From positions 120,001 through 152,000 of the forward strand of contig CP075337.1 of the NCBI GenBank assembly GCA_025349965.1: DNA of 32,000 bases, read 5' to 3'. The notes beneath the pieces are model-generated. The model saw only the letters and a program-made list of their open reading frames with translations. It had not been told where the DNA came from and made no database searches. The position numbers and the translations under genes were made by a program. Positions within the stretch are counted from its first letter, which is position 1, and each line of letters starts with the position of its first letter. This stretch comes from Candidatus Saccharimonadota bacterium. GTDB taxonomy: Bacteria; Patescibacteriota; Saccharimonadia; Saccharimonadales; Saccharimonadaceae. Of the stretch, positions 4,516 to 32,000 are shown piece by piece.

Positions 4516-5202
4516 ATGAATGACACCCCGCGCAATATACCAGAAGAAACACCACCTATACAGCCGACTGTAGTACATGTTGCGAGGCCACTTGAGCCGG
4601 AGAAGATCGAGATTACTCCTGAACAGCGCCGTAGGCACGACCGATCCACTCGTCTCTATCCAAATTTAAATCTTAGCGAGGGTGAATATGTTATCCGCGC
4701 AGTGCGGAGGCATCCGATTGGGTTAATAATGCCGCTTTCCGTTGGGGTTCTTTTGATTGCTGCTGCAATGTCTGTCTTGGTGTACTACGAAGAAATAGCA
4801 GAAGCCGTTCCGCTTCTCGGTCAGCTCGGCGGTTTTCAGGGGTTGTTTTTGCCCGTGGTGGCCTTGATTGTGCTTTTTGCCTTTCTCATGTTTATTAGCT
4901 GGTATGTCTATACGAGTAATAGGTTTTTTCTTACAAACGAGAGTGTTATTCAGGAGATTCAGCCGAGTATATTCTCTCACCAAGAGCAGACTGTGAGTCT
5001 TGGTAATATTGAAGATGCGAGTTATACCAAGAAAGGTATTCTTCAGCAAATACTTGACTATGGAGATATTAGATTAAGTACCGAAGGTGATGAGACGACC
5101 TACCGCTTTAGTTATGTTGCTCACCCTAAAGAGCATATCGCGCACCTTAATAATGCGGTTGAAGCTTTTAAAAACGGCCGTCCCGTTCCGGACGAATTCT
5201 AG
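4516..5202 (+). CDS. Membrane protein with bacterial PH domain (YdbS/YdbT-like, bPH_2)
   Basis: It shows the LSEGEYVIRAVRRHP motif, then two TM helices, then FFLTNESVIQ...IEDASYTKKGILQQILDYGDIRLST, as is typical of DUF304/bPH_2. The start is the internal ATG behind the -10 box, not the track start 4309 inside ruvB. Confidence 0.6.
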   Translation: MNDTPRNIPEETPPIQPTVVHVARPLEPEKIEITPEQRRRHDRSTRLYPNLNLSEGEYVIRAVRRHPIGLIMPLSVGVLLIAAAMSVLVYYEEIAEAVPLLGQLGGFQGLFLPVVALIVLFAFLMFISWYVYTSNRFFLTNESVIQEIQPSIFSHQEQTVSLGNIEDASYTKKGILQQILDYGDIRLSTEGDETTYRFSYVAHPKEHIAHLNNAVEAFKNGRPVPDEF

Positions 5203-5591
5203 TTTTTGTTCTTTTTTACAAAATCGTCTTCTCGTTCGAGAATCGCGCGCAATGAGTAGCCGGTGCAGGTAGTATCACTTGTGCAACCAGTTGGCTCATA
5301 GCGATATTGACTATCACCTTCGCCAATGAGGATATCGTTTGTGTCCTTGAACGTGTCAGGATTCACGGTTGGAAGGGTATCCTTGGTGAGTGTCCGAGGG
5401 TAGGATTTATGCGCCGGATAGTAAACAGATTCAAGCGTATGATACATCGTATTGATAGCTGTTTTGCGCGCTTCATCACGTGCCGCCGCTGTAACGTTAT
5501 TTTTTTGCGTAAAGAAAAGTATACTTGCAAATGCCAAGACCGCTACAACAATAAGTATTTCAATAATGGTAAAGCCTTTGCGTGATTTCAT
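5199..5591 (-). CDS. Type IV pilin (prepilin with class III signal)
   Basis: The N-terminus is MKSRKG/FTIIEILIVVAVLAFASILF, with G at -1, F at +1 and E at +5. A C-terminal Cys pair (CTSDTTC) is present. The start is chosen at ATG 5591, preceded by TGATACAAT + 8 nt. Confidence 0.8.
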   Translation of the reverse strand: MKSRKGFTIIEILIVVAVLAFASILFFTQKNNVTAAARDEARKTAINTMYHTLESVYYPAHKSYPRTLTKDTLPTVNPDTFKDTNDILIGEGDSQYRYEPTGCTSDTTCTGYSLRAILEREDDFVKKNKN

Positions 5592-8790: not shown

Positions 8791-9359
8791 AAGAGTGGTC
8801 CACCTTGTCGCGTTGGTTGTTGCATAGCTGAGTTAATTCGTGTAGAAAATTCAATTCGCACTGGATGGTTCGGCACATCCTTTGCCGTCGTACTGCTTGA
8901 GCGTATAGTGACTTGCGAGAGAGCCCCGGTAGTTTCGATGGAGCTGCGAACTGACTCCGGTGTTATCTCTTTTTTTGCGTAAACGATAAGGTCGAGGGAT
9001 TTTTCTTGGGGGTTCTGAGTTTTTAGATCAAAGGATCGAATAAATGACCCTTGGGGGAGTACTTGAGCAAGGCGTGCGAGGAGCTGTGATGTCTTGACGT
9101 CCTGCTGAGTACCTGTCGACATAAGGGCACTCAAGAGCGCCTCATCATTTGCTTGTCCTTGTGATGCGTTAGTTCCGCCGAGGGTGAGTTGGTCTGTGGC
9201 GCTTTTTTCGCTGCTTTTTAGTGATTCGTAGGATATGTACACGATACCACCTATAAAGAGACCTGCGAGTGCAAGGACGAGAATATAGCGAACGAGAATC
9301 GTGTTGGTGCGTGCCGCACGAATCTCATTCTTTTTTACGTCAGAGAGAAGGTTTATCAT
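8787..9359 (-). CDS. pilN: PilN-like pilus alignment protein
   Basis: It starts MINLLSDVKK..., the hallmark INLL start of PilN, then has a TM helix LVLALAGLFIGGIVYI. The ATG overlaps the pilM stop (ATGA). The track start 9467 lies inside pilM and was rejected. Confidence 0.6.
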   Translation of the reverse strand: MINLLSDVKKNEIRAARTNTILVRYILVLALAGLFIGGIVYISYESLKSSEKSATDQLTLGGTNASQGQANDEALLSALMSTGTQQDVKTSQLLARLAQVLPQGSFIRSFDLKTQNPQEKSLDLIVYAKKEITPESVRSSIETTGALSQVTIRSSSTTAKDVPNHPVRIEFSTRINSAMQQPTRQGGPLL

Positions 9360-10414
9360 TTCCAGATAGCCCCCGGAACAACACTCGCGGCGCCTGCTAC
9401 GGTAATAAACCGCGGGCGAAGTTGTTTTTGTGGCTCTTCGATTGTACCGAAGTCTAGCTTTTGCCATGGGCTTGCGACACGGGCTGCGATAACGATATTT
9501 TCAGTAAAGTAGTCTCCAATGCCGGGTACGTTGCTGCCACTCCCCACGATTAGTAGCTGTTCTAGTTTTCGTTCGGTATCGATTCGCTCGGTGTAGTAGC
9601 GCATGACCTTTCGAGTTTCGGTAATAATTGCATCAAGGCTGGGGCTGAGAGCTGTGCGGAGTCTTTGCTGACGAGGGCCAGCGCTAAGGCCATTAAGTAC
9701 CTTAAGTTGGTGTGCGTTTTCAAGCGAGACATTCATCTTTTTTGCCACATCAAGCGTAAAGGTGTTTCCACCTATTGGAATTCCGCCGGTGACGCGAATT
9801 GACCCCTTATCTAGGATTGCAATATCGGTGCTTGTTGGGCCTATGTCAACGATGACCGTTGGAAGTGTGCCGTCTTCGGTTGCAGTGAGCACGCGCCCAA
9901 CCGAGTTGATGCTTGGCTCAATGAGCGTTGGAAAGAGTTTCGCTGCTTCAATATTTTTCGTAATGTTATCGATAATCGTCCGTGACATTGCACTCATGAG
10001 CACGGTAATTGTTTTGTTTTTGCGCTCAATGATTTGATAATCAATATAGAGCGTTGATATCGGAATAGGAATATACTGCTCAGCTTCAAGCGAGACTGCT
10101 TCGTCGAGAGATTTCTCCGCAGAAGCGGGAAGTGTGAAGGTACGTGTGTAGCTCTTTGCCGTAGGGACGGCTACGGCGACACGCGTGCCCGTAATAGTGC
10201 CAATAAGTTTATTCTGCATTAAATCCACGATGGTGTCAGCAAGAAAGGTGCTCGAGCTGTCTTCGATTGCTTCACGCATTTTCTTTGGGTCAACGTCAAT
10301 AGACCCGTAACCATTTACGAGCCATTTCTTTGAATCTACGGACATAACTTTTATGCCCGAACTACTGATATCAAGCCCTATCAGTGGAGTATCTTTATAG
10401 AAAAATTTTGACAT
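9356..10414 (-). CDS. pilM: Type IV pilus assembly protein PilM (actin-like ATPase fold)
   Basis: The protein has 352 aa. Motifs include IGLDISSSGIKVM, VIVDIGPTSTDIAIL and LLIVGSGSNVPGIGDYF, as is typical of PilM/FtsA-like proteins. Confidence 0.85.
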   Translation of the reverse strand: MSKFFYKDTPLIGLDISSSGIKVMSVDSKKWLVNGYGSIDVDPKKMREAIEDSSSTFLADTIVDLMQNKLIGTITGTRVAVAVPTAKSYTRTFTLPASAEKSLDEAVSLEAEQYIPIPISTLYIDYQIIERKNKTITVLMSAMSRTIIDNITKNIEAAKLFPTLIEPSINSVGRVLTATEDGTLPTVIVDIGPTSTDIAILDKGSIRVTGGIPIGGNTFTLDVAKKMNVSLENAHQLKVLNGLSAGPRQQRLRTALSPSLDAIITETRKVMRYYTERIDTERKLEQLLIVGSGSNVPGIGDYFTENIVIAARVASPWQKLDFGTIEEPQKQLRPRFITVAGAASVVPGAIWK

Positions 10415-10441
10415 ATGCCCACTTATTGTTTCTTTGTACTT

Positions 10442-10450
10442 ATTATAGCA
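10442..10450 (-). promoter_or_regulatory. Extended -10 box TGCTATAAT upstream of pilM (internal operon promoter, ~27-nt leader)
   Basis: The minus strand reads TGCTATAAT-AAGTACAAAGAAACAATAAGTGGGCAT-ATG(10414), in the 57-bp pilC-pilM gap. Confidence 0.45.
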
Positions 10451-10471
10451 TGAGCACTATAATTCCGTAGG

Positions 10472-11701
10472 TTATTTGATGTTCTGTGAGAGCTGTGCAA
10501 TTGGGAGCATAACACTGGCAGCAATGAGGCCAACCGCCCCACCCATAAGTACGATCATCGCAGGTTCAATGATGGAGCTCAGCCCCTCTACGGCTATATC
10601 TACCTCTTCTTCGTAGAAGTCAGCTACTTTCACGAGCACGGTATCAGTTTGTCCGGTTTCTTCACCGACGGCAAGCATCTGGGCAACGATAGAAGGAAAG
10701 AGTGGATTTTGCTCAATAACTGCAGAGAGTTGTTGTCCATTTTTTACCTCAACACCCGCTTGAACGAGACTCTCCTCGAAGAGGGCATTGCCCACGGCAC
10801 GTGAAGTGATATCAAGTGCCTCAAGCACTGCGACACCAGCGCTCATGAGAGCGGAAAAGGTTCGGGCAAAGCGTGCGACGGCAAGCTTACGAACTAACGT
10901 CCGGATAACAGGGATTTTCAAGATAAGGGAGTGGAATGCTCGTCGTCCGCGTTTGGTATGAACGTACCAAATTATAAACAGCGCAAGTGCGGCAAGTGCA
11001 GGAATAATAATAAACCAGTAGCCTGTAATGGCGCCGCTTAGGCCGAGCATGAATAATGTGATTCCGGGAAGTTTTGCATCGGGACCACCGAGGTCTTTTA
11101 GGATGGTACTGATTTGTGGAACGACGAATAGCATAAGACCGAAGAAGGCGAGAATGGCAATGACGATCAACACTGTTGGGTAGGTCATGGCGCTGCGAAT
11201 TTTTTTACGCATTGCGGCGCTTTTTTCAAGTTGTTCGGCGAGTCTTCGTAGAATATCATCAAGAATACCCGCAGATTCACCTGCTCGCACCATATTAACG
11301 TAGATATCGTTAAATGTTGCAGGGTATTTTGAAAAAGCATCTCCGAGGGATGCGCCAGCTTCGATATCTTTGATGATGTCATTCAAGATTTTCTTTAGTG
11401 ACTTGTCATCGGTGTATTTTTCAATTGAAGTCAGAGAGCGGAGAAGTGGTACGCCTGCGCCGACCATTGCGCTTAGTTGGCGAGTGAATGATACAAGGCT
11501 GGCATGCTTTACTTTTGAGCTCTGGAATAGATTGTTGAGGTCAAAAGAAAGGGTCTTCTTTTCGCGAAGCTCTTTAATGCTAATGGGTCGGAGATTTTGC
11601 TTTCCGAGTGCCTCGATAACGCTCGATCTGTCAGGAAGATCGGTTTTTCCTTTGACGACATTATTGCTTGCATCCGAGGCGACATATGAGAATAATGGCA
11701 T
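10472..11701 (-). CDS. pilC: Type IV pilus platform protein PilC (GspF family)
   Basis: The protein has 409 aa with two GspF repeats (FTRQLSAMVGAGVPLLRSL; FARTFSALMSAGVAVLEAL) and three TM segments. Confidence 0.9.
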   Translation of the reverse strand: MPLFSYVASDASNNVVKGKTDLPDRSSVIEALGKQNLRPISIKELREKKTLSFDLNNLFQSSKVKHASLVSFTRQLSAMVGAGVPLLRSLTSIEKYTDDKSLKKILNDIIKDIEAGASLGDAFSKYPATFNDIYVNMVRAGESAGILDDILRRLAEQLEKSAAMRKKIRSAMTYPTVLIVIAILAFFGLMLFVVPQISTILKDLGGPDAKLPGITLFMLGLSGAITGYWFIIIPALAALALFIIWYVHTKRGRRAFHSLILKIPVIRTLVRKLAVARFARTFSALMSAGVAVLEALDITSRAVGNALFEESLVQAGVEVKNGQQLSAVIEQNPLFPSIVAQMLAVGEETGQTDTVLVKVADFYEEEVDIAVEGLSSIIEPAMIVLMGGAVGLIAASVMLPIAQLSQNIK

Positions 11702-11704
11702 ATA

Positions 11705-13489
11705 TTATTCCCTATTCACCCTAAGGATTTCTTCAACGGTCGTTTCACCGCGCAGTGCTTTTATGAGCCCGTCAATCTGCATACTAATCATGCCATCACG
11801 TATAGCTTGGGCGTGAATTTGATCACTTGAGGCGCGTGCCATAATCATGTCTTTGATTGCAGGGGAGTTATTGAGTACTTCGTAGATACCGATACGCCCA
11901 CGATAGCCTTCCTGTACCTCGTCTACCGTGTGGTTTGTATCTGCGCGCCAGAGCGTTTTGATGCCGTTTTCATCAGTGCTTAACGGAGTGTCACCTCCAA
12001 GGCCGGCTTTTGCGGCACGCTTTTCTAGTTCGTGAATAATCTTGAAACTCTCGGCACTATTGGAGAGGCCAAAAAGTTTTACAATCGAAGCTTTTTCTTC
12101 ATCTGATGGGACGTAGCTTTGTCGTGATTCTCTGTGGAGACGACGAACAAGGCGTTGTCCAACGACCGCCCGTACAGTACTTGCAATCAAGAAGGGCTCA
12201 ACGCTCATATCGAGAAGACGAGGGAGTGTTGTGGCGGCATTATTGGTGTGCAGGGTCGTAAAGACCATGTGCCCCGTAAGAGCGGCTTGGATAGCAAGGT
12301 TTGCTGTTTCGCTGTCACGGATCTCACCGACCATAATAATGTTTGGGTCTTGGCGTAGTAACGCGCGCAGGCCGTTTGCAAATGTCATGCCTGCTTTCGG
12401 GTTTGTTTGAGTCTGATTAACTCCAGGAATCTTGTATTCTACAGGGTCTTCGACGGTAGAAATATTGACATTTGGCCGATTGAGCATCGTAAGAATGCTA
12501 AAGAGGCTTGTTGATTTACCGCTACCGGTTGGACCGGTTACGAGGACAATTCCATCGGGCTCTTGCATTTCTCTGCTAATATCTTCAAGAGATTTTCCCC
12601 AGTAGCCGAGCTCTTTAAGGCTAACAGCTTGATTGGATTCGTCCAGAATACGCATTACAATCTTTTCACCGTCAACAATAGGAAGTGTACTGACACGAAG
12701 TGCATACTGTCTACCGCCAACATTAATCTTAAAACGGCCATCTTGTGGGACGCGACGCTCGTCAATTTTGAGATTTGAGAGAATTTTAATACGACTTGTA
12801 AGTGCACCCGAAACATTCTTTGGTAGGCGGTTCACTTCCTTCAAGATACCATCGATGCGGTAGCGCACCTGGATGCCGTCTTCACGCGGTTCAATATGTA
12901 CGTCACTGGCGTGTGAGCGCACGGCATACTCGAGGAGCAGGTTGACGGTTTGCGCAATTGGAGAGTCTTCCGCGATGTCTTTCTCGGCAATGACTTCGAG
13001 GCCTTCATTTTCCTGACGCTGTGTGTCAATAACTTCGTCGAGCTCTTTCGTAACGTCCCCGCGGTACATGTCGAGAACGGAGAGGATATTGTCGCGACTT
13101 GCGATATAGATTTTGGAGTTTGTGCCAATTTCTTTTTGAATGAAGTTGATTGCCTGAACATCATCAGGGTCTTCCATGGCAAGGTGCGGAATATTGTCAC
13201 TGTCGATTTCAAAAAGCACGGCCATGTATTGGCGGGCAACGCGCTCTGGAATTTTTCGTAGCACATCACTTGGGACGGATGAAGGGTCGATTTCGACGAA
13301 TGGAATTCCGCTGTATTCCGAAAAGGCGCGAAGTAATGCCTTTTCCGTGACAACCTTTTGGTCTATAACCACATCAAAAAGAGAACGCTTTGAACGAGTC
13401 GCCTCTTCAGAGAGCGTTTTAATTTGCTCAGGTGTTACAAGTTTTGCCCGCCCAAGCACCGTTTCCAGAGTTGTGTCGGAAATGCGCAT
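11705..13489 (-). CDS. pilB: Type IV pilus assembly ATPase PilB (GspE family)
   Basis: The protein has 594 aa. It has Walker A GPTGSGKST, the Asp box, Walker B IIMVGEIRD, the His box TGHMVFTTLHTN, and an N-terminal GSPII_E_N-like region. Confidence 0.9.
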   Translation of the reverse strand: MRISDTTLETVLGRAKLVTPEQIKTLSEEATRSKRSLFDVVIDQKVVTEKALLRAFSEYSGIPFVEIDPSSVPSDVLRKIPERVARQYMAVLFEIDSDNIPHLAMEDPDDVQAINFIQKEIGTNSKIYIASRDNILSVLDMYRGDVTKELDEVIDTQRQENEGLEVIAEKDIAEDSPIAQTVNLLLEYAVRSHASDVHIEPREDGIQVRYRIDGILKEVNRLPKNVSGALTSRIKILSNLKIDERRVPQDGRFKINVGGRQYALRVSTLPIVDGEKIVMRILDESNQAVSLKELGYWGKSLEDISREMQEPDGIVLVTGPTGSGKSTSLFSILTMLNRPNVNISTVEDPVEYKIPGVNQTQTNPKAGMTFANGLRALLRQDPNIIMVGEIRDSETANLAIQAALTGHMVFTTLHTNNAATTLPRLLDMSVEPFLIASTVRAVVGQRLVRRLHRESRQSYVPSDEEKASIVKLFGLSNSAESFKIIHELEKRAAKAGLGGDTPLSTDENGIKTLWRADTNHTVDEVQEGYRGRIGIYEVLNNSPAIKDMIMARASSDQIHAQAIRDGMISMQIDGLIKALRGETTVEEILRVNRE

Positions 13490-28844: not shown

Positions 28845-29546
28845 ATGAGTATTGAGTCGCTAGTAGAGAATTACCGTACTCCAAAAGAGGCGGTTCAAGT
28901 TGTGAAGAAAACAAAAATTGCCCTACTGGTTGGCATTTCTGGTGCAGGAAAAGATACGGTTAAAAAAGGCCTGCTTGCACGTCCTGGCTTTGGGGAGATT
29001 ATCTCTCATACCACACGTGCGCCACGTGAGAATAACGGTATTTTGGAAAAAGATGGCGTAGATTACCACTTTATCACCACACATACTGCCTATGATATGC
29101 TAGAACGCGGTGATTTTATAGAGGCAAAGATGGTGCACGGTACTGTCTACGGAACCTCAACGGAAGATGTGCTGCGCGCAAGTACGCACGGCGTTGCAAT
29201 TACCGACCTTGATGTCCAGGGCGTTGCCGAGTACAAGGATGTCTCGGAAGATGTTGTCGCAATCTTTATTATTCCACCAAGCTACGAAGAGTGGATTCGG
29301 CGGCTTCGTCGACGCTACACGACAGAAGAAGAGTTTATGCATGAATGGCCGAAGCGTCGCGATAGCGCCATCGCTGAGTTGAGGCGCGCGCTTGAGGTGC
29401 CGTACTATCACTGCGTCATTAATGACGAAATTGATAGAGCAGTGGAAGTGGCAGCAGAAATTGCCCAGCGCGAAGATGTCTTTACGCGTAAGGATGACGA
29501 AGCTCGCATAGTAGCTCGCGACTTGCTACAGCAGATTTCTATGTAA
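28845..29546 (+). CDS. gmk: Guanylate kinase-like protein
   Basis: It has the P-loop GISGAGKDT and the motifs SHTTRAPRENN..DGVDYHF and EAKMVHGTVYGTS. At 233 aa it is somewhat longer than typical Gmk, with extra N- and C-terminal segments. Confidence 0.75.
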   Translation: MSIESLVENYRTPKEAVQVVKKTKIALLVGISGAGKDTVKKGLLARPGFGEIISHTTRAPRENNGILEKDGVDYHFITTHTAYDMLERGDFIEAKMVHGTVYGTSTEDVLRASTHGVAITDLDVQGVAEYKDVSEDVVAIFIIPPSYEEWIRRLRRRYTTEEEFMHEWPKRRDSAIAELRRALEVPYYHCVINDEIDRAVEVAAEIAQREDVFTRKDDEARIVARDLLQQISM

Positions 29547-29556
29547 TCCTATAAAG

Positions 29557-29583
29557 CTGGCACTCACATTGAAAGAGTGCTAG
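29557..29583 (+). promoter_or_regulatory. CIRCE operator (HrcA binding site)
   Basis: The element CTGGCACTC-N9-GAGTGCTAG compares with the consensus TTAGCACTC-N9-GAGTGCTAA. It ends 8 nt upstream of the hrcA -10 box. Confidence 0.85.
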
Positions 29584-29588
29584 TTTTG

Positions 29589-29597
29589 TGCTATAAT
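29589..29597 (+). promoter_or_regulatory. Extended -10 box TGCTATAAT, 6 nt upstream of the hrcA ATG
   Basis: The sequence reads TGCTATAAT-GAGGGT-ATG(29604). Confidence 0.55.
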
Positions 29598-29603
29598 GAG
29601 GGT

Positions 29604-30311
29604 ATGACAGAACGCCAGCGCCAAATTCTCTCTGCAATTATTGAGCAGCATGCAGAAATTGCTGCTCCTGTTGGGAGTGTTATGTTGGCAAAACTCTTTA
29701 ATGTCTCGAGCGCCACTATTCGTAGTGAAATGGCAAAACTTGAAGAAATGGGTATGATTGAACAGCCACACACCAGTGCGGGTCGTATTCCAACTGACCT
29801 TGGCTACCGTTTCTATGTAAATAGTTTGAGTGAAGCACACGCATCACAACCACAACTTCCTGACCGTGGTGCCCGTGCCATCGAAGCGCGTGTACAAACG
29901 CATAGTGACCGTGCTGACCGTGCTATTCGCAGCGCCGTAGACAGCCTTGTGGAGCTTACGCACAACCTTGGTCTTGCAACGATTGGCGATGAACTTTATC
30001 TTAGTGGTATCGGTAACCTCTTTTCGCAGCCGGAATTTCTTCAGGGTGACCACGTGCAGCAAGTAGCGCGCCTGCTTGATAACCTTGAGCCGTGGCTTCG
30101 TGAAGCGGCGCCAAACGAGCCACTTAACGTTTATATTGGGTCTGAAAACCCAATCGGAAAGACGAGCGGCGTATCGCTTATCATTAGTCGATTCCGTTCG
30201 CCATACAGCGACAATAGCTATATCGGTGTTCTTGGCCCGACACGTCAGAGCTATGACAAAGTGATGCGGCTCGTGCGTCACACTGGAGCAATGTTAGAAG
30301 AGGTTTTATAG
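29604..30311 (+). CDS. hrcA: Heat-inducible transcription repressor HrcA (short, 235 aa)
   Basis: It starts MTERQRQILSAIIEQHAEIAAPVGS...LFNVSSATIRSEMAKLEEMGMIEQPHTSAGRIPT, a wHTH. It lies next to CIRCE and upstream of grpE. Confidence 0.85.
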   Translation: MTERQRQILSAIIEQHAEIAAPVGSVMLAKLFNVSSATIRSEMAKLEEMGMIEQPHTSAGRIPTDLGYRFYVNSLSEAHASQPQLPDRGARAIEARVQTHSDRADRAIRSAVDSLVELTHNLGLATIGDELYLSGIGNLFSQPEFLQGDHVQQVARLLDNLEPWLREAAPNEPLNVYIGSENPIGKTSGVSLIISRFRSPYSDNSYIGVLGPTRQSYDKVMRLVRHTGAMLEEVL

Positions 30312-30321
30312 GGGAGAATAC

Positions 30322-30816
30322 ATGAACGAAGAAGCAAAAAAGACACCAAAATCTACAAAAAAGAACCTGCAAGCCGAGCTTGAACAGCAACTTGCTGAAT
30401 TGACGCTTGATTTGCAGCGCACGCGGGCTGATTTTGAAAATTATCGTAAGCGCGTAGAAGTGGAAAAGTCGGCTGCTCGCGAGGCTGGTCAGTCTGGTGC
30501 CGTGCTTAAACTCCTTCCGGTTATTGATAATATTGAGCGCGCCATTGCCTATATGCCAGAAGACCTTCGGGAGAATAAATGGGCGCAGGGCGTGGCAAGT
30601 CTCGTAAAGAATCTTGATAAGTCACTTGAGGGTTTAAGTGTCCGTCGCATTGACGCAAAACCGGGTACGGTGTTTAACCCAGATTTTCACGAAGCGATCC
30701 AGTTTGACGAAGATGCGCAGGGTGACCAAGAGGTGATTGCAGAAGAACTTCAGGCCGGCTATATGCTTGGTGATCGTGTGGTTCGTCATGCCATGGTGAA
30801 GGTAACGCGTCAATAA
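30322..30816 (+). CDS. grpE: Nucleotide exchange factor GrpE
   Basis: Motifs RTRADFENYRKR, LLPVIDNIERA, FNPDFHEA and VRHAMVKV are present. An SD GGGGAG lies upstream. Confidence 0.9.
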   Translation: MNEEAKKTPKSTKKNLQAELEQQLAELTLDLQRTRADFENYRKRVEVEKSAAREAGQSGAVLKLLPVIDNIERAIAYMPEDLRENKWAQGVASLVKNLDKSLEGLSVRRIDAKPGTVFNPDFHEAIQFDEDAQGDQEVIAEELQAGYMLGDRVVRHAMVKVTRQ

Positions 30817-30831
30817 TTCACATCCCTCTTA

Positions 30832-30840
30832 TGCTATACT
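30832..30840 (+). promoter_or_regulatory. Extended -10 box TGCTATACT, 9 nt upstream of ATG 30850
   Basis: The sequence reads TGCTATACT-AAAATCATC-ATG. Confidence 0.45.
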
Positions 30841-30849
30841 AAAATCATC

Positions 30850-31550
30850 ATGAAATCACACAAGAATTCTGTTCAAAACAACTATAATACTATTATATCA
30901 CAAAACACTATAAAAAGCAAACTCTCTCTCTCTCTCTCTCTCGTAAAAGAGTAGCATCGGCTTTTACTATCGTTGAGCTCCTTATTGTCATTGTCGTCAT
31001 AGCCCTCCTCGCCGCCATCACTATCGTTGCGTATAACGGCATTACTACGTCTGCGAATGACGCGGCTCGACTGGCAGACATTAAAAATTTTGAGACTACA
31101 CTTAGAGCCAACAAAGCTGTACATCCTCAGGGTTGGGTTGTAACCCCTCCTTCCGACCCTGGAGGGGAGAACGCATTGTCTCGAACTGAATTCTTGCGGG
31201 TGAACGGCCTGAAGAGTTTTGAGGGCAAGTTATGTATTGGTCAATACGATCGGTCGAATAAAGGTTGTTACCCAGATCTTGTTGAGGGTGTTGTGCCGGA
31301 GTATGACCGGCAGAAGATTTATATATCTGTTAGTGCCGTAGGGATTCATGGAAGTCCGGCTTCGGGGGTAAATCTCAATTTCTTGTCTTGGGATGCAGAT
31401 CAAGGAAGATGGATGGGTAAAAATTTCACTGCAACCACTGAGTCTCTTGATAGTGAGGATGTGTTTGATGGCGGACGATGCACGCCAGGTGTGGAGTGGG
31501 ATCCTAGTTTTGATCAGGAGTGTAGGTACGCGAAGTATGAAGTAACATGA
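30850..31550 (+). pseudogene. Second type IV pilin gene, out of frame with its start codon at a (CT)n tract (candidate phase-variable gene, OFF as sequenced)
   Basis: The ATG 30850 frame reads MKSHKNSVQNNYNTIISQNTIKSKLSLSLSLSLVKE* and stops at TAG 30952-30954. The -1 frame, open from 30888 to 31550, reads ..RKRVASAFTIVELLIVIVVIALLAAITIVAYNG.. plus a globular domain with two Cys pairs. That frame has no ATG, GTG or TTG before the pilin motif. Confidence 0.65.
30922..30942 (+). repeat. Perfect dinucleotide repeat (CT)10 + C
   Basis: CTCTCTCTCTCTCTCTCTCTC is read directly from the sequence. It lies between ATG 30850 and the prepilin cleavage motif. Confidence 0.98.
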
Positions 31551-31637
31551 TTTGTTTGGGATTGAGCGGAGCGAACACAGCTTGTGCATAAAATACATTC
31601 TTCATTGATAATCCACTGGTTTATGTGATTGTCCTTA

Positions 31638-31646
31638 TGCTAAAAT
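31638..31646 (+). promoter_or_regulatory. Extended -10 box TGCTAAAAT, 9 nt upstream of ATG 31656
   Basis: The sequence reads TGCTAAAAT-AGAAGCATT-ATG. Confidence 0.4.
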
Positions 31647-31655
31647 AGAAGCATT

Positions 31656-32000
31656 ATGCGTGGGCAACTATATTCATTGATGACGAATCCAGATTTTAAT
31701 GGGGTCGTTGAAACAACACAGGCCGCTCGTGAGGCGGTAAAGAGAGATGCAAGTATTTTTGAGGTCGTTCCAACCGGTGTGATTGCACCGCGCGACGTGA
31801 ATGATATTCAGGCAGCGGTACGCTGGGCGAGCGAAGAGGTGGAGGCGGGGCGTCCTGTCACGCTTGCGGCTCGTGTTGGTGGCACGTGTATGTCTGGCGG
31901 CTCACTCACCGAAGGATACGTTCTTGACCTCAAGCGCTTCTTTAATTTCACTGGTCAGGTTGACCCAGCTGCGCGGACAATTCGTACGCAATCTGGCGCA
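31656..32000 (+). CDS. FAD-binding (PCMH/FAD_binding_4-type) oxidoreductase, N-terminal part (3' end outside the window)
   Basis: My translation is MRGQLYSLMTNPDFNGVVETTQAAREAVKRDASIFEVVPTGVIAPRDVNDIQAAVRWA...LAARVGGTCMSGGSLTEGYVLDLKRF. This matches the GlcD-like pattern P..V..P....D......A.......R.GGT...GG......V.DL. The frame is open to the window end and is not in the ORF track. Confidence 0.65.
   Translation, partial: MRGQLYSLMTNPDFNGVVETTQAAREAVKRDASIFEVVPTGVIAPRDVNDIQAAVRWASEEVEAGRPVTLAARVGGTCMSGGSLTEGYVLDLKRFFNFTGQVDPAARTIRTQSGA

Follow-up and report, generated by a model that had tools for sequence, protein, structure and literature searches.

The 32-kb window analysed here (the whole stretch of DNA, with position 1 at its first letter) comes from the complete 780,698-bp genome of Candidatus Saccharibacteria TM7i, and contains a type IV pilin gene whose reading frame is separated from its start codon by a (CT)n tract. 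We consider it likely, judging from sequence, that this locus is a working slipped-strand contingency locus caught in its OFF, or out-of-frame, phase, and we are more certain that the gene is one of a class of pilin genes whose leaders are hypermutable. It encodes an accessory type IV pilin, and its expression is probably controlled by the hypermutable (CT)n tract within the prepilin leader region. An initial annotation of the window had proposed a contingency switch acting on an alternative pilin, and this proposal is supported by the recurrence of such tracts in other pilin genes, the scatter of their phases, length alleles, the intact open reading frames (ORFs) behind OFF tracts, and database proteins that represent ON, or in-frame, forms.

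The tract, the start codon and the pilin

Tandem Repeats Finder identified the CT tract at 30922-30942 on the (+) strand as a period-2 array (10.5 copies, 100% matches), and as the sole dinucleotide array in the window. It is perfect and long enough for hypermutability, as is expected of a contingency locus. The ORF that begins at ATG 30850 runs through the tract to TAG 30952-30954 and encodes 34 aa, reading MKSHKNSVQNNYNTIISQNTIKSKLSLSLSLVKE. The pilin frame is open from 30888 to TGA 31548-31550, reading ...TLSLSLSRKRVASA↓FTIVELLIVIVVIALLAAITIVAYNG... (the arrow here and below marks the prepilin-peptidase cleavage site), with 195 residues from the Phe that follows the site. The earliest ATG, GTG or TTG in this frame is TTG 31176, so the pilin has no canonical start of its own upstream of the motif. 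The tract sits after the start codon and ahead of the main part of the ORF, where unit changes toggle the frame, and the 202 codons downstream of it are open though out of frame. When the tract was changed in silico, a length of 19 nt gave a 232-aa prepilin and a length of 25 nt a 234-aa prepilin. In all of these respects the initial annotation was borne out: it had reported the perfect tract, the stop of the ATG 30850 frame, a −1 frame open from 30888 to 31550 with no start before the pilin motif, the fusion of both frames by the loss of one CT unit or the gain of two, and a TGCTATACT −10 box at 30832-30840 followed 9 nt later by ATG 30850.

The protein encoded behind the tract has the features of a type IV pilin. 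Its cleavage motif, RKRVASA↓FTIVE, has the class III form [G/A]↓F-x-x-x-E with Glu at +5, and the hydrophobic stretch after the cleavage site, FTIVELLIVIVVIALLAAITIVAY, is of the kind that forms the pilin alpha-1 helix; the mature sequence also includes the peptide ANKAVHPQGWVVTPPSDPGGENALSR. Ala at −1 is common to the homologues P0002, P0006 and P0005, and the leaders of the nearest homologues end in ...RRSSA↓FTIVE and ...ASSSA↓FTIVE. The class III signal with Glu at +5 had been noted before, as had the tolerance of Ala at −1, and both agree with what we found. The earlier estimate of about 190 mature residues was close to the exact 195, and the two Cys pairs it described are present, but their spacings are C-x10-C and C-x13-C (Cys at 91, 102, 173 and 187 of the mature protein) and not C-x12-C and C-x15-C. 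By alignment, Cys91/102 and Cys173/187 are conserved in P0001, P0002 and P0006, and other family-conserved residues are kept too. A hidden Markov model search, suggested in the initial annotation, gave borderline results, with the protein above the cutoff for TIGR02532 (16.8 bits versus 16.3) and just under that for PF07963 (20.0 versus 21.2). The AlphaFold2 model, whose numbering begins at 30942, has a predicted local distance difference test score (pLDDT) of 75.5 and shows a helix at model residues 10-60 and then a four-stranded sheet, a predicted topology that is pilin-like. With Foldseek, no PDB entry matched this model significantly (best E=0.07).

The nearest relatives are ~37% identical and include a paralogue within TM7i. 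In word-index searches the full-length pilin query missed TM7i’s own 116-aa fragment, the conserved N-terminal helix having saturated the candidate list, while a query with the globular domain alone recovered it; the helix is best left out of such searches. Searches for exact matches to the 124-aa ORF, the HrcA GTG form and P0001 returned none. The 116-aa fragment is the hypothetical protein UTX51489.1, a C-terminal piece of the pilin that starts at an internal GTG between the genes for GrpE (UTX51488.1) and an oxidoreductase (UTX51490.1). As GenBank holds only the last 116 codons, the pilin nature of the gene and its frameshift are both missing from the record. Tandem Repeats Finder also reported a 24-nt imperfect direct repeat inside the pilin gene (31016-31062, two copies, 79% matches) that spans ...ITIVAYNG/ITTSANDA, which probably reflects chance similarity or an ancient duplication within the gene.

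The start codon was assessed from the spacing between promoter and ATG across the window. Extended −10 boxes of the form TGnTAnAnT occur 11 times, and an ATG follows 6-9 nt downstream at six of them. Five of these ATGs open long ORFs, of 191 aa (box 2895), 228 aa (box 4501), hrcA (box 29589), the oxidoreductase (box 31638) and 373 aa (box 21927, minus strand), and the sixth is ATG 30850. The stricter motif TGCTAWAMT is found six times in the window against 1.04 expected. Because the same spacing recurs at five other window genes, ATG 30850 is probably the genuine start of the pilin, on a leaderless mRNA. Its frame is also the only one open between promoter and tract, although the chance of this is ~0.14 and the support is weak taken alone. 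The 13-mer CTTATGCTATACT, which contains the −10 box, lies upstream of the homologous (CT)n pilin in a Saccharibacteria-type locus (L029/L060) as well, and the (CT)n pilin of L008, a Saccharibacteria metagenome-assembled genome (MAG), has the upstream promoter CTTATGCTATAAT. A simple sigma-70 consensus scan did not report TATACT as a −10 element and paired TTCACA (from 30817) with TAAAAT (ending at 30845); its two promoter-like sites do not exceed the 2.3 expected in shuffled sequence, and the promoter is therefore called from the recurring interval between extended −10 box and ATG. A search of Rfam found no RNA family within 29000-32000. More broadly, the extended −10 box followed by ATG after 6-9 nt suggests that many TM7i genes have leaderless mRNAs; recA (5705), unlike these genes, has a GGAGG Shine-Dalgarno sequence.

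Initiation at the non-canonical ATC 30897, which lies in the pilin frame, would put the present tract in frame and make the ATG 30850 ORF irrelevant. It would give ITKHYKKQT(LS)3RKRVASA↓F, and the ITKHYKK portion resembles the MTNHYLKN leader of P0002, with the synonymous differences CAC/CAT and TAT/TAC. A TATAAT box lies 8 nt upstream of this codon, and L008 shares the sequence ATC ACA AAA CAC. However, the TATAAT box is not conserved in L008, and the naturally in-frame P0005 reads the same conserved DNA in the other frame, as LYHKT, from a normal ATG. ATC serves very poorly as an initiation codon, and the translation of leaderless mRNAs relies heavily on AUG. We regard this start as hardly credible.

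With ATG 30850 as the start, the switch would work as follows. Transcription from the extended −10 box would yield a leaderless or nearly leaderless mRNA that begins with ATG 30850, and translation would produce a leader of about 24 hydrophilic residues, a (Leu-Ser)n stretch from the CT tract, and then the basic RKRVASA, after whose final Ala prepilin peptidase would cut, ahead of FTIVE. Slipped-strand mispairing at replication would add or remove CT units, and every third length would join ATG 30850 to the pilin; at its reference length of 21 nt, one unit too long, the gene would be OFF, and at 19 or 25 nt it would be ON. Since cleavage removes the leader, tract length would leave the mature pilin unaffected. 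Saccharibacteria have been reported to be without MutS and MutL (PMC8406219), a lack that would be expected to raise the slippage of dinucleotide tracts, by analogy with Helicobacter pylori. TM7i cells would be expected to switch, and switching may alter piliation, attachment, or phage and host interactions. The features of the locus and of its surroundings are collected in Table 1.

Table 1. Positions of the pilin locus, its edges and related genes in the window.
Feature	Position	Strand	Remarks
Type IV pilus assembly genes	9356..13489	−	PilB ATPase 11705-13489, PilC platform 10472-11701, PilM 9356-10414
Strain-specific pilin cassette, 817 bp	30817..31633	.	From the grpE stop to the promoter of the FAD-binding oxidoreductase
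Promoter-like CTTATGCTATACT with extended −10 TGCTATACT at 30832-30840	30828..30840	+	
Prepilin ATG start codon	30850..30852	+	9 nt past the −10 box; mRNA probably leaderless
34-codon frame of the present OFF phase	30850..30954	+	Leader N-terminus, (LS)n, out-of-frame VKE, stop
Proposed slippage site (CT)10.5	30922..30942	+	ON at 19 or 25 nt, OFF at 21 nt
Basic leader end in pilin frame, RKRVASA	30942..30962	+	Site cut by prepilin peptidase has Ala at −1
Coding sequence of the mature pilin (195 aa and stop)	30963..31550	+	FTIVE with Glu5, hydrophobic alpha-1 helix, globular domain
GenBank UTX51489.1, ‘hypothetical protein KI440_00815’	31200..31550	+	116 aa from GTG 31200; only coding sequence annotated here
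Promoter-like CTTATGCTAAAAT of the FAD-binding oxidoreductase (ATG 31657)	31634..31646	+	Right cassette edge

Recurrence, phase and length of the tract in other pilin genes

Genomes were scanned with a pattern of (CT)6, 0-30 nt, and then a degenerate FT[x][I/V]E-hydrophobic motif. Among 185,579 species genomes there were 10 matches, seven of them in named Patescibacteria (two Gracilibacteria, three Paceibacterota, one Saccharibacteria and one ‘Patescibacteria group’); the remaining three were an unclassified MAG, probably of Patescibacteria, one Acidobacteriota and one Verrucomicrobiia. The same scan of JGI metagenomes returned 42 loci, of which nine were non-pilin chance matches and three were duplicates of the genome matches. 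This gave 38 distinct pilin genes, most from Patescibacteria, in which the tract follows an ATG and precedes a basic stretch that ends in [G/A]↓FT[LI][IV]E; peptides similar to that of TM7i follow the tract elsewhere (RKKRVA, NKKATG and KDRKSG). All 40 tracts of (CT)>=6 in the 261 kb of these loci sit in pilin leaders, and about 20 neighbouring pilin paralogues in the same loci are without the repeat.

In-frame forms of such genes are found among database proteins. Among the 120 top-ranking protein homologues of TM7i’s pilin, six have (LS)n leaders (P0004, P0005, P0012, P0013, P0015 and P0018). P0004, with the leader MKKSTLSLSLSLSLSRKKLKIARG↓F, is the ON form of the locus in L020/L060. P0005, with the leader MTTNTAKEELNILLYHKTGKKASSLSLSHRLKKSSA↓F, is naturally in frame, and its 36-aa leader is built like the 37-aa leader predicted for TM7i. 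The view that the TM7i leader is an MKSRKG-type leader with an insertion of ~35 aa, taken in the initial annotation, is not supported, since P0005 has an in-frame leader of the same build. At the DNA level, the leader of L008 is homologous to that of TM7i, reading TATATCACAAAACAC...AAAAAGCAA(CT)12.

Some of these loci differ from TM7i in arrangement. L029 (14229-14334) and L060 (2970-3072) have two ATGs in different frames upstream of one (CT)n tract, giving MIIRGIIERFNEKVNS... and MKKST..., and database proteins use both (P0012, P0015 and P0018 versus P0004). One and the same mature pilin is thus made in two of the three tract phases, behind a leader that depends on the phase. In the Gracilibacteria pilin leaders L004 (1583-1662) and L009 (2464-2525), ATG TGA AAn is followed by (CT)15-16; a sensible translation of these leaders requires that UGA be taken as Gly (code 25), and in one MAG both copies are out of frame by an equal offset. 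A proteobacterial-type pilin, FTLIELMIVVA.IGILASVALPTYQDYTKR, has the leader ATGATGAAGCG(CT)n, and the device is thus not confined to Patescibacteria. At L027 (~600-709, minus-strand orientation), the FTLIE motif of a neighbouring Gracilibacteria-type pilin is preceded, no more than 120 nt upstream, by a G9 homopolymer that may be another kind of repeat switch.

Tract length and phase are related across the loci. Tracts of up to 13 nt are mostly in frame (10 ON, 3 OFF), and tracts of at least 14 nt mostly out of frame (5 ON, 18 OFF; Fisher p=0.0019). The OFF alleles nevertheless retain intact pilin ORFs, of 158-543 aa at the 18 other OFF loci. That 18 of 23 long-tract alleles are out of frame also raises the possibility of recoding, in which RNA polymerase stutter on (CT)n, or a 2-nt ribosomal slip on (CU)n with re-pairing of the CUC/UCU tRNAs, lets OFF alleles yield some pilin. 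Twelve of those 18 need one more unit, the direction expected of RNA insertion or of a −2 ribosomal slip, and the pilin frame has no alternative start. The first eight loci were moreover all out of frame by one offset, but the larger sample weakened this: the phases of tracts of at least 14 nt stand at 5:12:6, with no significant departure from a random distribution (p=0.15). TM7i, for its part, is OFF in the other phase, and length alleles are seen directly in DNA (L029 versus L060). We know of no established precedent in bacteria for efficient slippage on dinucleotide repeats. Recoding can coexist with slipped-strand switching; as the explanation of this locus we consider it very improbable.

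The alleles themselves come from closely related contigs. In one Saccharibacteria strain, L029 (35 nt) and L060 (33 nt) align over 3141 nt with one gap and no mismatch, and L060 in turn matches L020, whose tract also has 33 nt, without any difference over 3511 nt, so that the 33- and 35-nt alleles are the sole difference across 6.6 kb. L020 and L029 are two contigs from one metagenome sample, and both end at the tract. A proteobacterial-type pilin shows a wider range: L015 (1221-1251) and L051 (2485-2501) are 97% identical with tracts of 31 and 17 nt, and together with L042 (3729-3740) they form a series of 31-, 17- and 12-nt tracts that are ON, OFF and ON, on contigs 90-97% identical. Contig ends at or within a few bases of the tract were seen repeatedly (L010/L043 at position 1, L020 and L029), consistent with within-sample length heterogeneity breaking the assembly graph.

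If the true TM7i tract were uniformly in frame, its 21 nt would be a polishing artefact. PacBio Sequel and Illumina NovaSeq reads went into the genome assembly (PMC9894109); dinucleotide runs are error-prone in long reads and subject to stutter in the polymerase chain reaction, and contigs elsewhere break at tracts (L010/L043 and L020/L029). However, 21 nt is far below the Illumina read length and is normally resolved, and among long tracts the out-of-frame state prevails across many independent assemblies from different pipelines, which speaks for true variation and not for an isolated error. Mixed reads, were they the source of the error, would themselves be phase variation. An assembly or consensus error seems to us quite improbable.

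The strain-specific cassette and the possibility of a pseudogene

TM7i is a cultivated epibiont of Leucobacter aridicollis J1 whose type IV pili are reported to trigger its association with the host and to be needed for it (PMC9894109), and the suggestion in the initial annotation of a lineage with pilus-mediated attachment fits this source. The pilin lies in the gene order guanylate kinase, hrcA, grpE, pilin, FAD-binding oxidoreductase, and the PilB, PilC and PilM proteins encoded elsewhere in the window could polymerise it. A prepilin peptidase is not among the genes of the window. A second, intact pilin lies at 5199-5591 on the (−) strand, back to back with recA, and reads MKSRKG↓FTIIEILIVV (130 aa from ATG 5591; the call in an ENA MAG is six residues longer, from ATG 5609). 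The first 10 nt of this minus-strand gene and of the ATG 30850 ORF are the same, ATGAAATCAC, as had been pointed out in the initial annotation; ATGAAATCAC also begins the Gracilibacteria-type pilin of L018, so that MKS- is a common start of pilin leaders.

The pilin occupies a strain-specific cassette. Three independent assemblies (L001, L002 and L003), namely two Logan contigs and a 408-kb ENA MAG whose neighbouring proteins are identical or nearly so, have grpE, ~80 bp, and then the oxidoreductase gene. These strains carry instead of the pilin a 58-bp spacer (L001 704-761 and its equivalents in L002 and L003) with the hairpin terminator ATACCGCTA-ctcac-TAGCGGTAT. The 9-mer CTTATGCTA is present at both cassette edges, within the pilin promoter and the oxidoreductase promoter. 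A simple deletion between the two 9-mers was ruled out: the 58-bp spacer of the pilin-less strains is absent from TM7i, which means that a replacement took place, and its appearance suggests that recombination exchanged one allele for another. There is a further difference in the stop codon of grpE (TAA against TAG).

Several observations weigh against a working switch in TM7i. The three closest genomes lack the cassette and so offer no orthologue of this pilin for the comparison of orthologous loci that the initial annotation had proposed. An ON allele of this exact gene was not seen, and the collections hold no other copy of it. The tract length in TM7i is known from one consensus sequence. 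A search with the globular domain alone against 5.8 billion proteins matched solely TM7i’s own fragment. The conserved leader DNA is read in TM7i in another frame than in L008 and P0005, and the P0005-like frame carries a TAA in TM7i; judging from the sequence, this could be a sign of decay. As to the comparative evidence, the scan took in only CT repeats ahead of the pilin motif, and many of the 38 loci are paralogues or relatives, so that the statistics overstate their independence.

Much of this would suit a plain pseudogene, once phase-variable or intact and now permanently out of frame in TM7i, with the tract as a relic: three near-identical strains manage without the gene, the leader upstream of the tract is frame-shifted with a stop in the frame of its relatives, the globular domain has no close relative, and the GenBank entry is only a 116-aa fragment. 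Against decay stand the 202 codons that remain open past the tract, with the family-conserved residues and both Cys pairs kept, and the intact promoter and ATG at canonical spacing. The tract is perfect and uninterrupted, whereas an unselected tract would tend to degrade, and a single unit change restores a prepilin with a leader built like that of a natural ON allele. We therefore regard a pseudogene as unlikely, and a slipped-strand switch in its OFF phase as the probable state of the locus.

Implications and comparison with known systems

Type IV pili are the one experimentally supported means by which cultivated Patescibacteria find and hold their hosts. If the switch is real, regulator-poor cells would gain stochastic variation of adhesion, host range and phage susceptibility. 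The arrangement occurs in at least three Patescibacteria lineages, and among its carriers is TM7i, which can be grown with its host and makes the idea open to direct test. There are consequences for sequence records as well: tract-bearing pilin genes are mis-annotated as fragments or hypothetical proteins, UTX51489.1 among them, assemblies break at the tracts, and reference genomes may show an OFF state that is unrepresentative of the whole population. A more far-reaching and rather doubtful idea is that promoter, leader, (CT)n, basic region and alpha-1 helix form a portable switch module that has been recombined onto diverse pilin heads across Patescibacteria phyla (Saccharibacteria, Paceibacterota and Gracilibacteria), with several independent toggles per cell, some of them two-start and graded, whose ON combination would set host and phage range. 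Were this true, it would amount to bet-hedging of host range in organisms with few regulators and no mismatch repair.

Pilins of the same protein class and lineage have been studied in Nanosynbacter lyticus TM7x and in TM7i itself, where pili drive host binding and twitching and several paralogues are present (PMC11623550, PMC9894109). Unlike the pilins described there, the one reported here is a strain-specific accessory gene outside the pil cluster. Neither paper mentions phase variation, a frameshift or a pseudogene, and PMC11623550 mentions neither simple sequence nor slipped-strand events; a paper on Gracilibacteria treats a different, 9-mer repeat protein. The initial annotation had known of no such switch described for this kind of reduced-genome bacterium, and we likewise found none in the literature on Saccharibacteria and Patescibacteria, in which subscription journals were thinly covered, so that a prior description is possible.

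The principle of a repeat that gates a surface protein from within its leader is classical. In the opa genes of Neisseria, a CTCTT repeat in the leader-coding region toggles a surface adhesin and leaves the mature protein unaffected, the same logic as proposed for TM7i, although the unit is a pentamer, Opa belongs to a beta-barrel family and the secretion route is another. Type IV pilus function in Neisseria is itself phase-varied by poly-G in the signal-peptide coding region of pilC1 and pilC2, a further likeness; however, PilC is a tip adhesin and assembly factor rather than a pilin, and the repeat is a homopolymer, unlike in TM7i. The Neisseria pilin varies by gene conversion from pilS copies and not through a leader repeat. 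The initial annotation had named opa as its precedent, which holds for the principle, but the CT repeats of H. pylori are the nearer parallel.

H. pylori is without canonical MutS/MutL mismatch repair, a likeness to Saccharibacteria. Its genes oipA/hopH, sabA, sabB, hopZ and babB have, as in TM7i, a CT tract in the signal-peptide coding region that is read as Leu-Ser, and the products are surface adhesins, which we count as a likeness to the TM7i pilin. In these outer membrane protein genes slipped-strand mispairing at the CT repeats toggles the frame ON and OFF (PMC10564699). The differences lie in what is switched and where: a Sec-type signal peptide and a beta-barrel in a Gram-negative pathogen, against the leader of a class III prepilin, removed by a prepilin peptidase, in an ultrasmall episymbiont. 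Also unlike H. pylori, some loci related to that of TM7i have two ATGs, which makes two of the three phases productive. What appears to be new is thus a switch placed in a class III prepilin leader and recurring across Patescibacteria, built on the same principle that operates in H. pylori and Neisseria.

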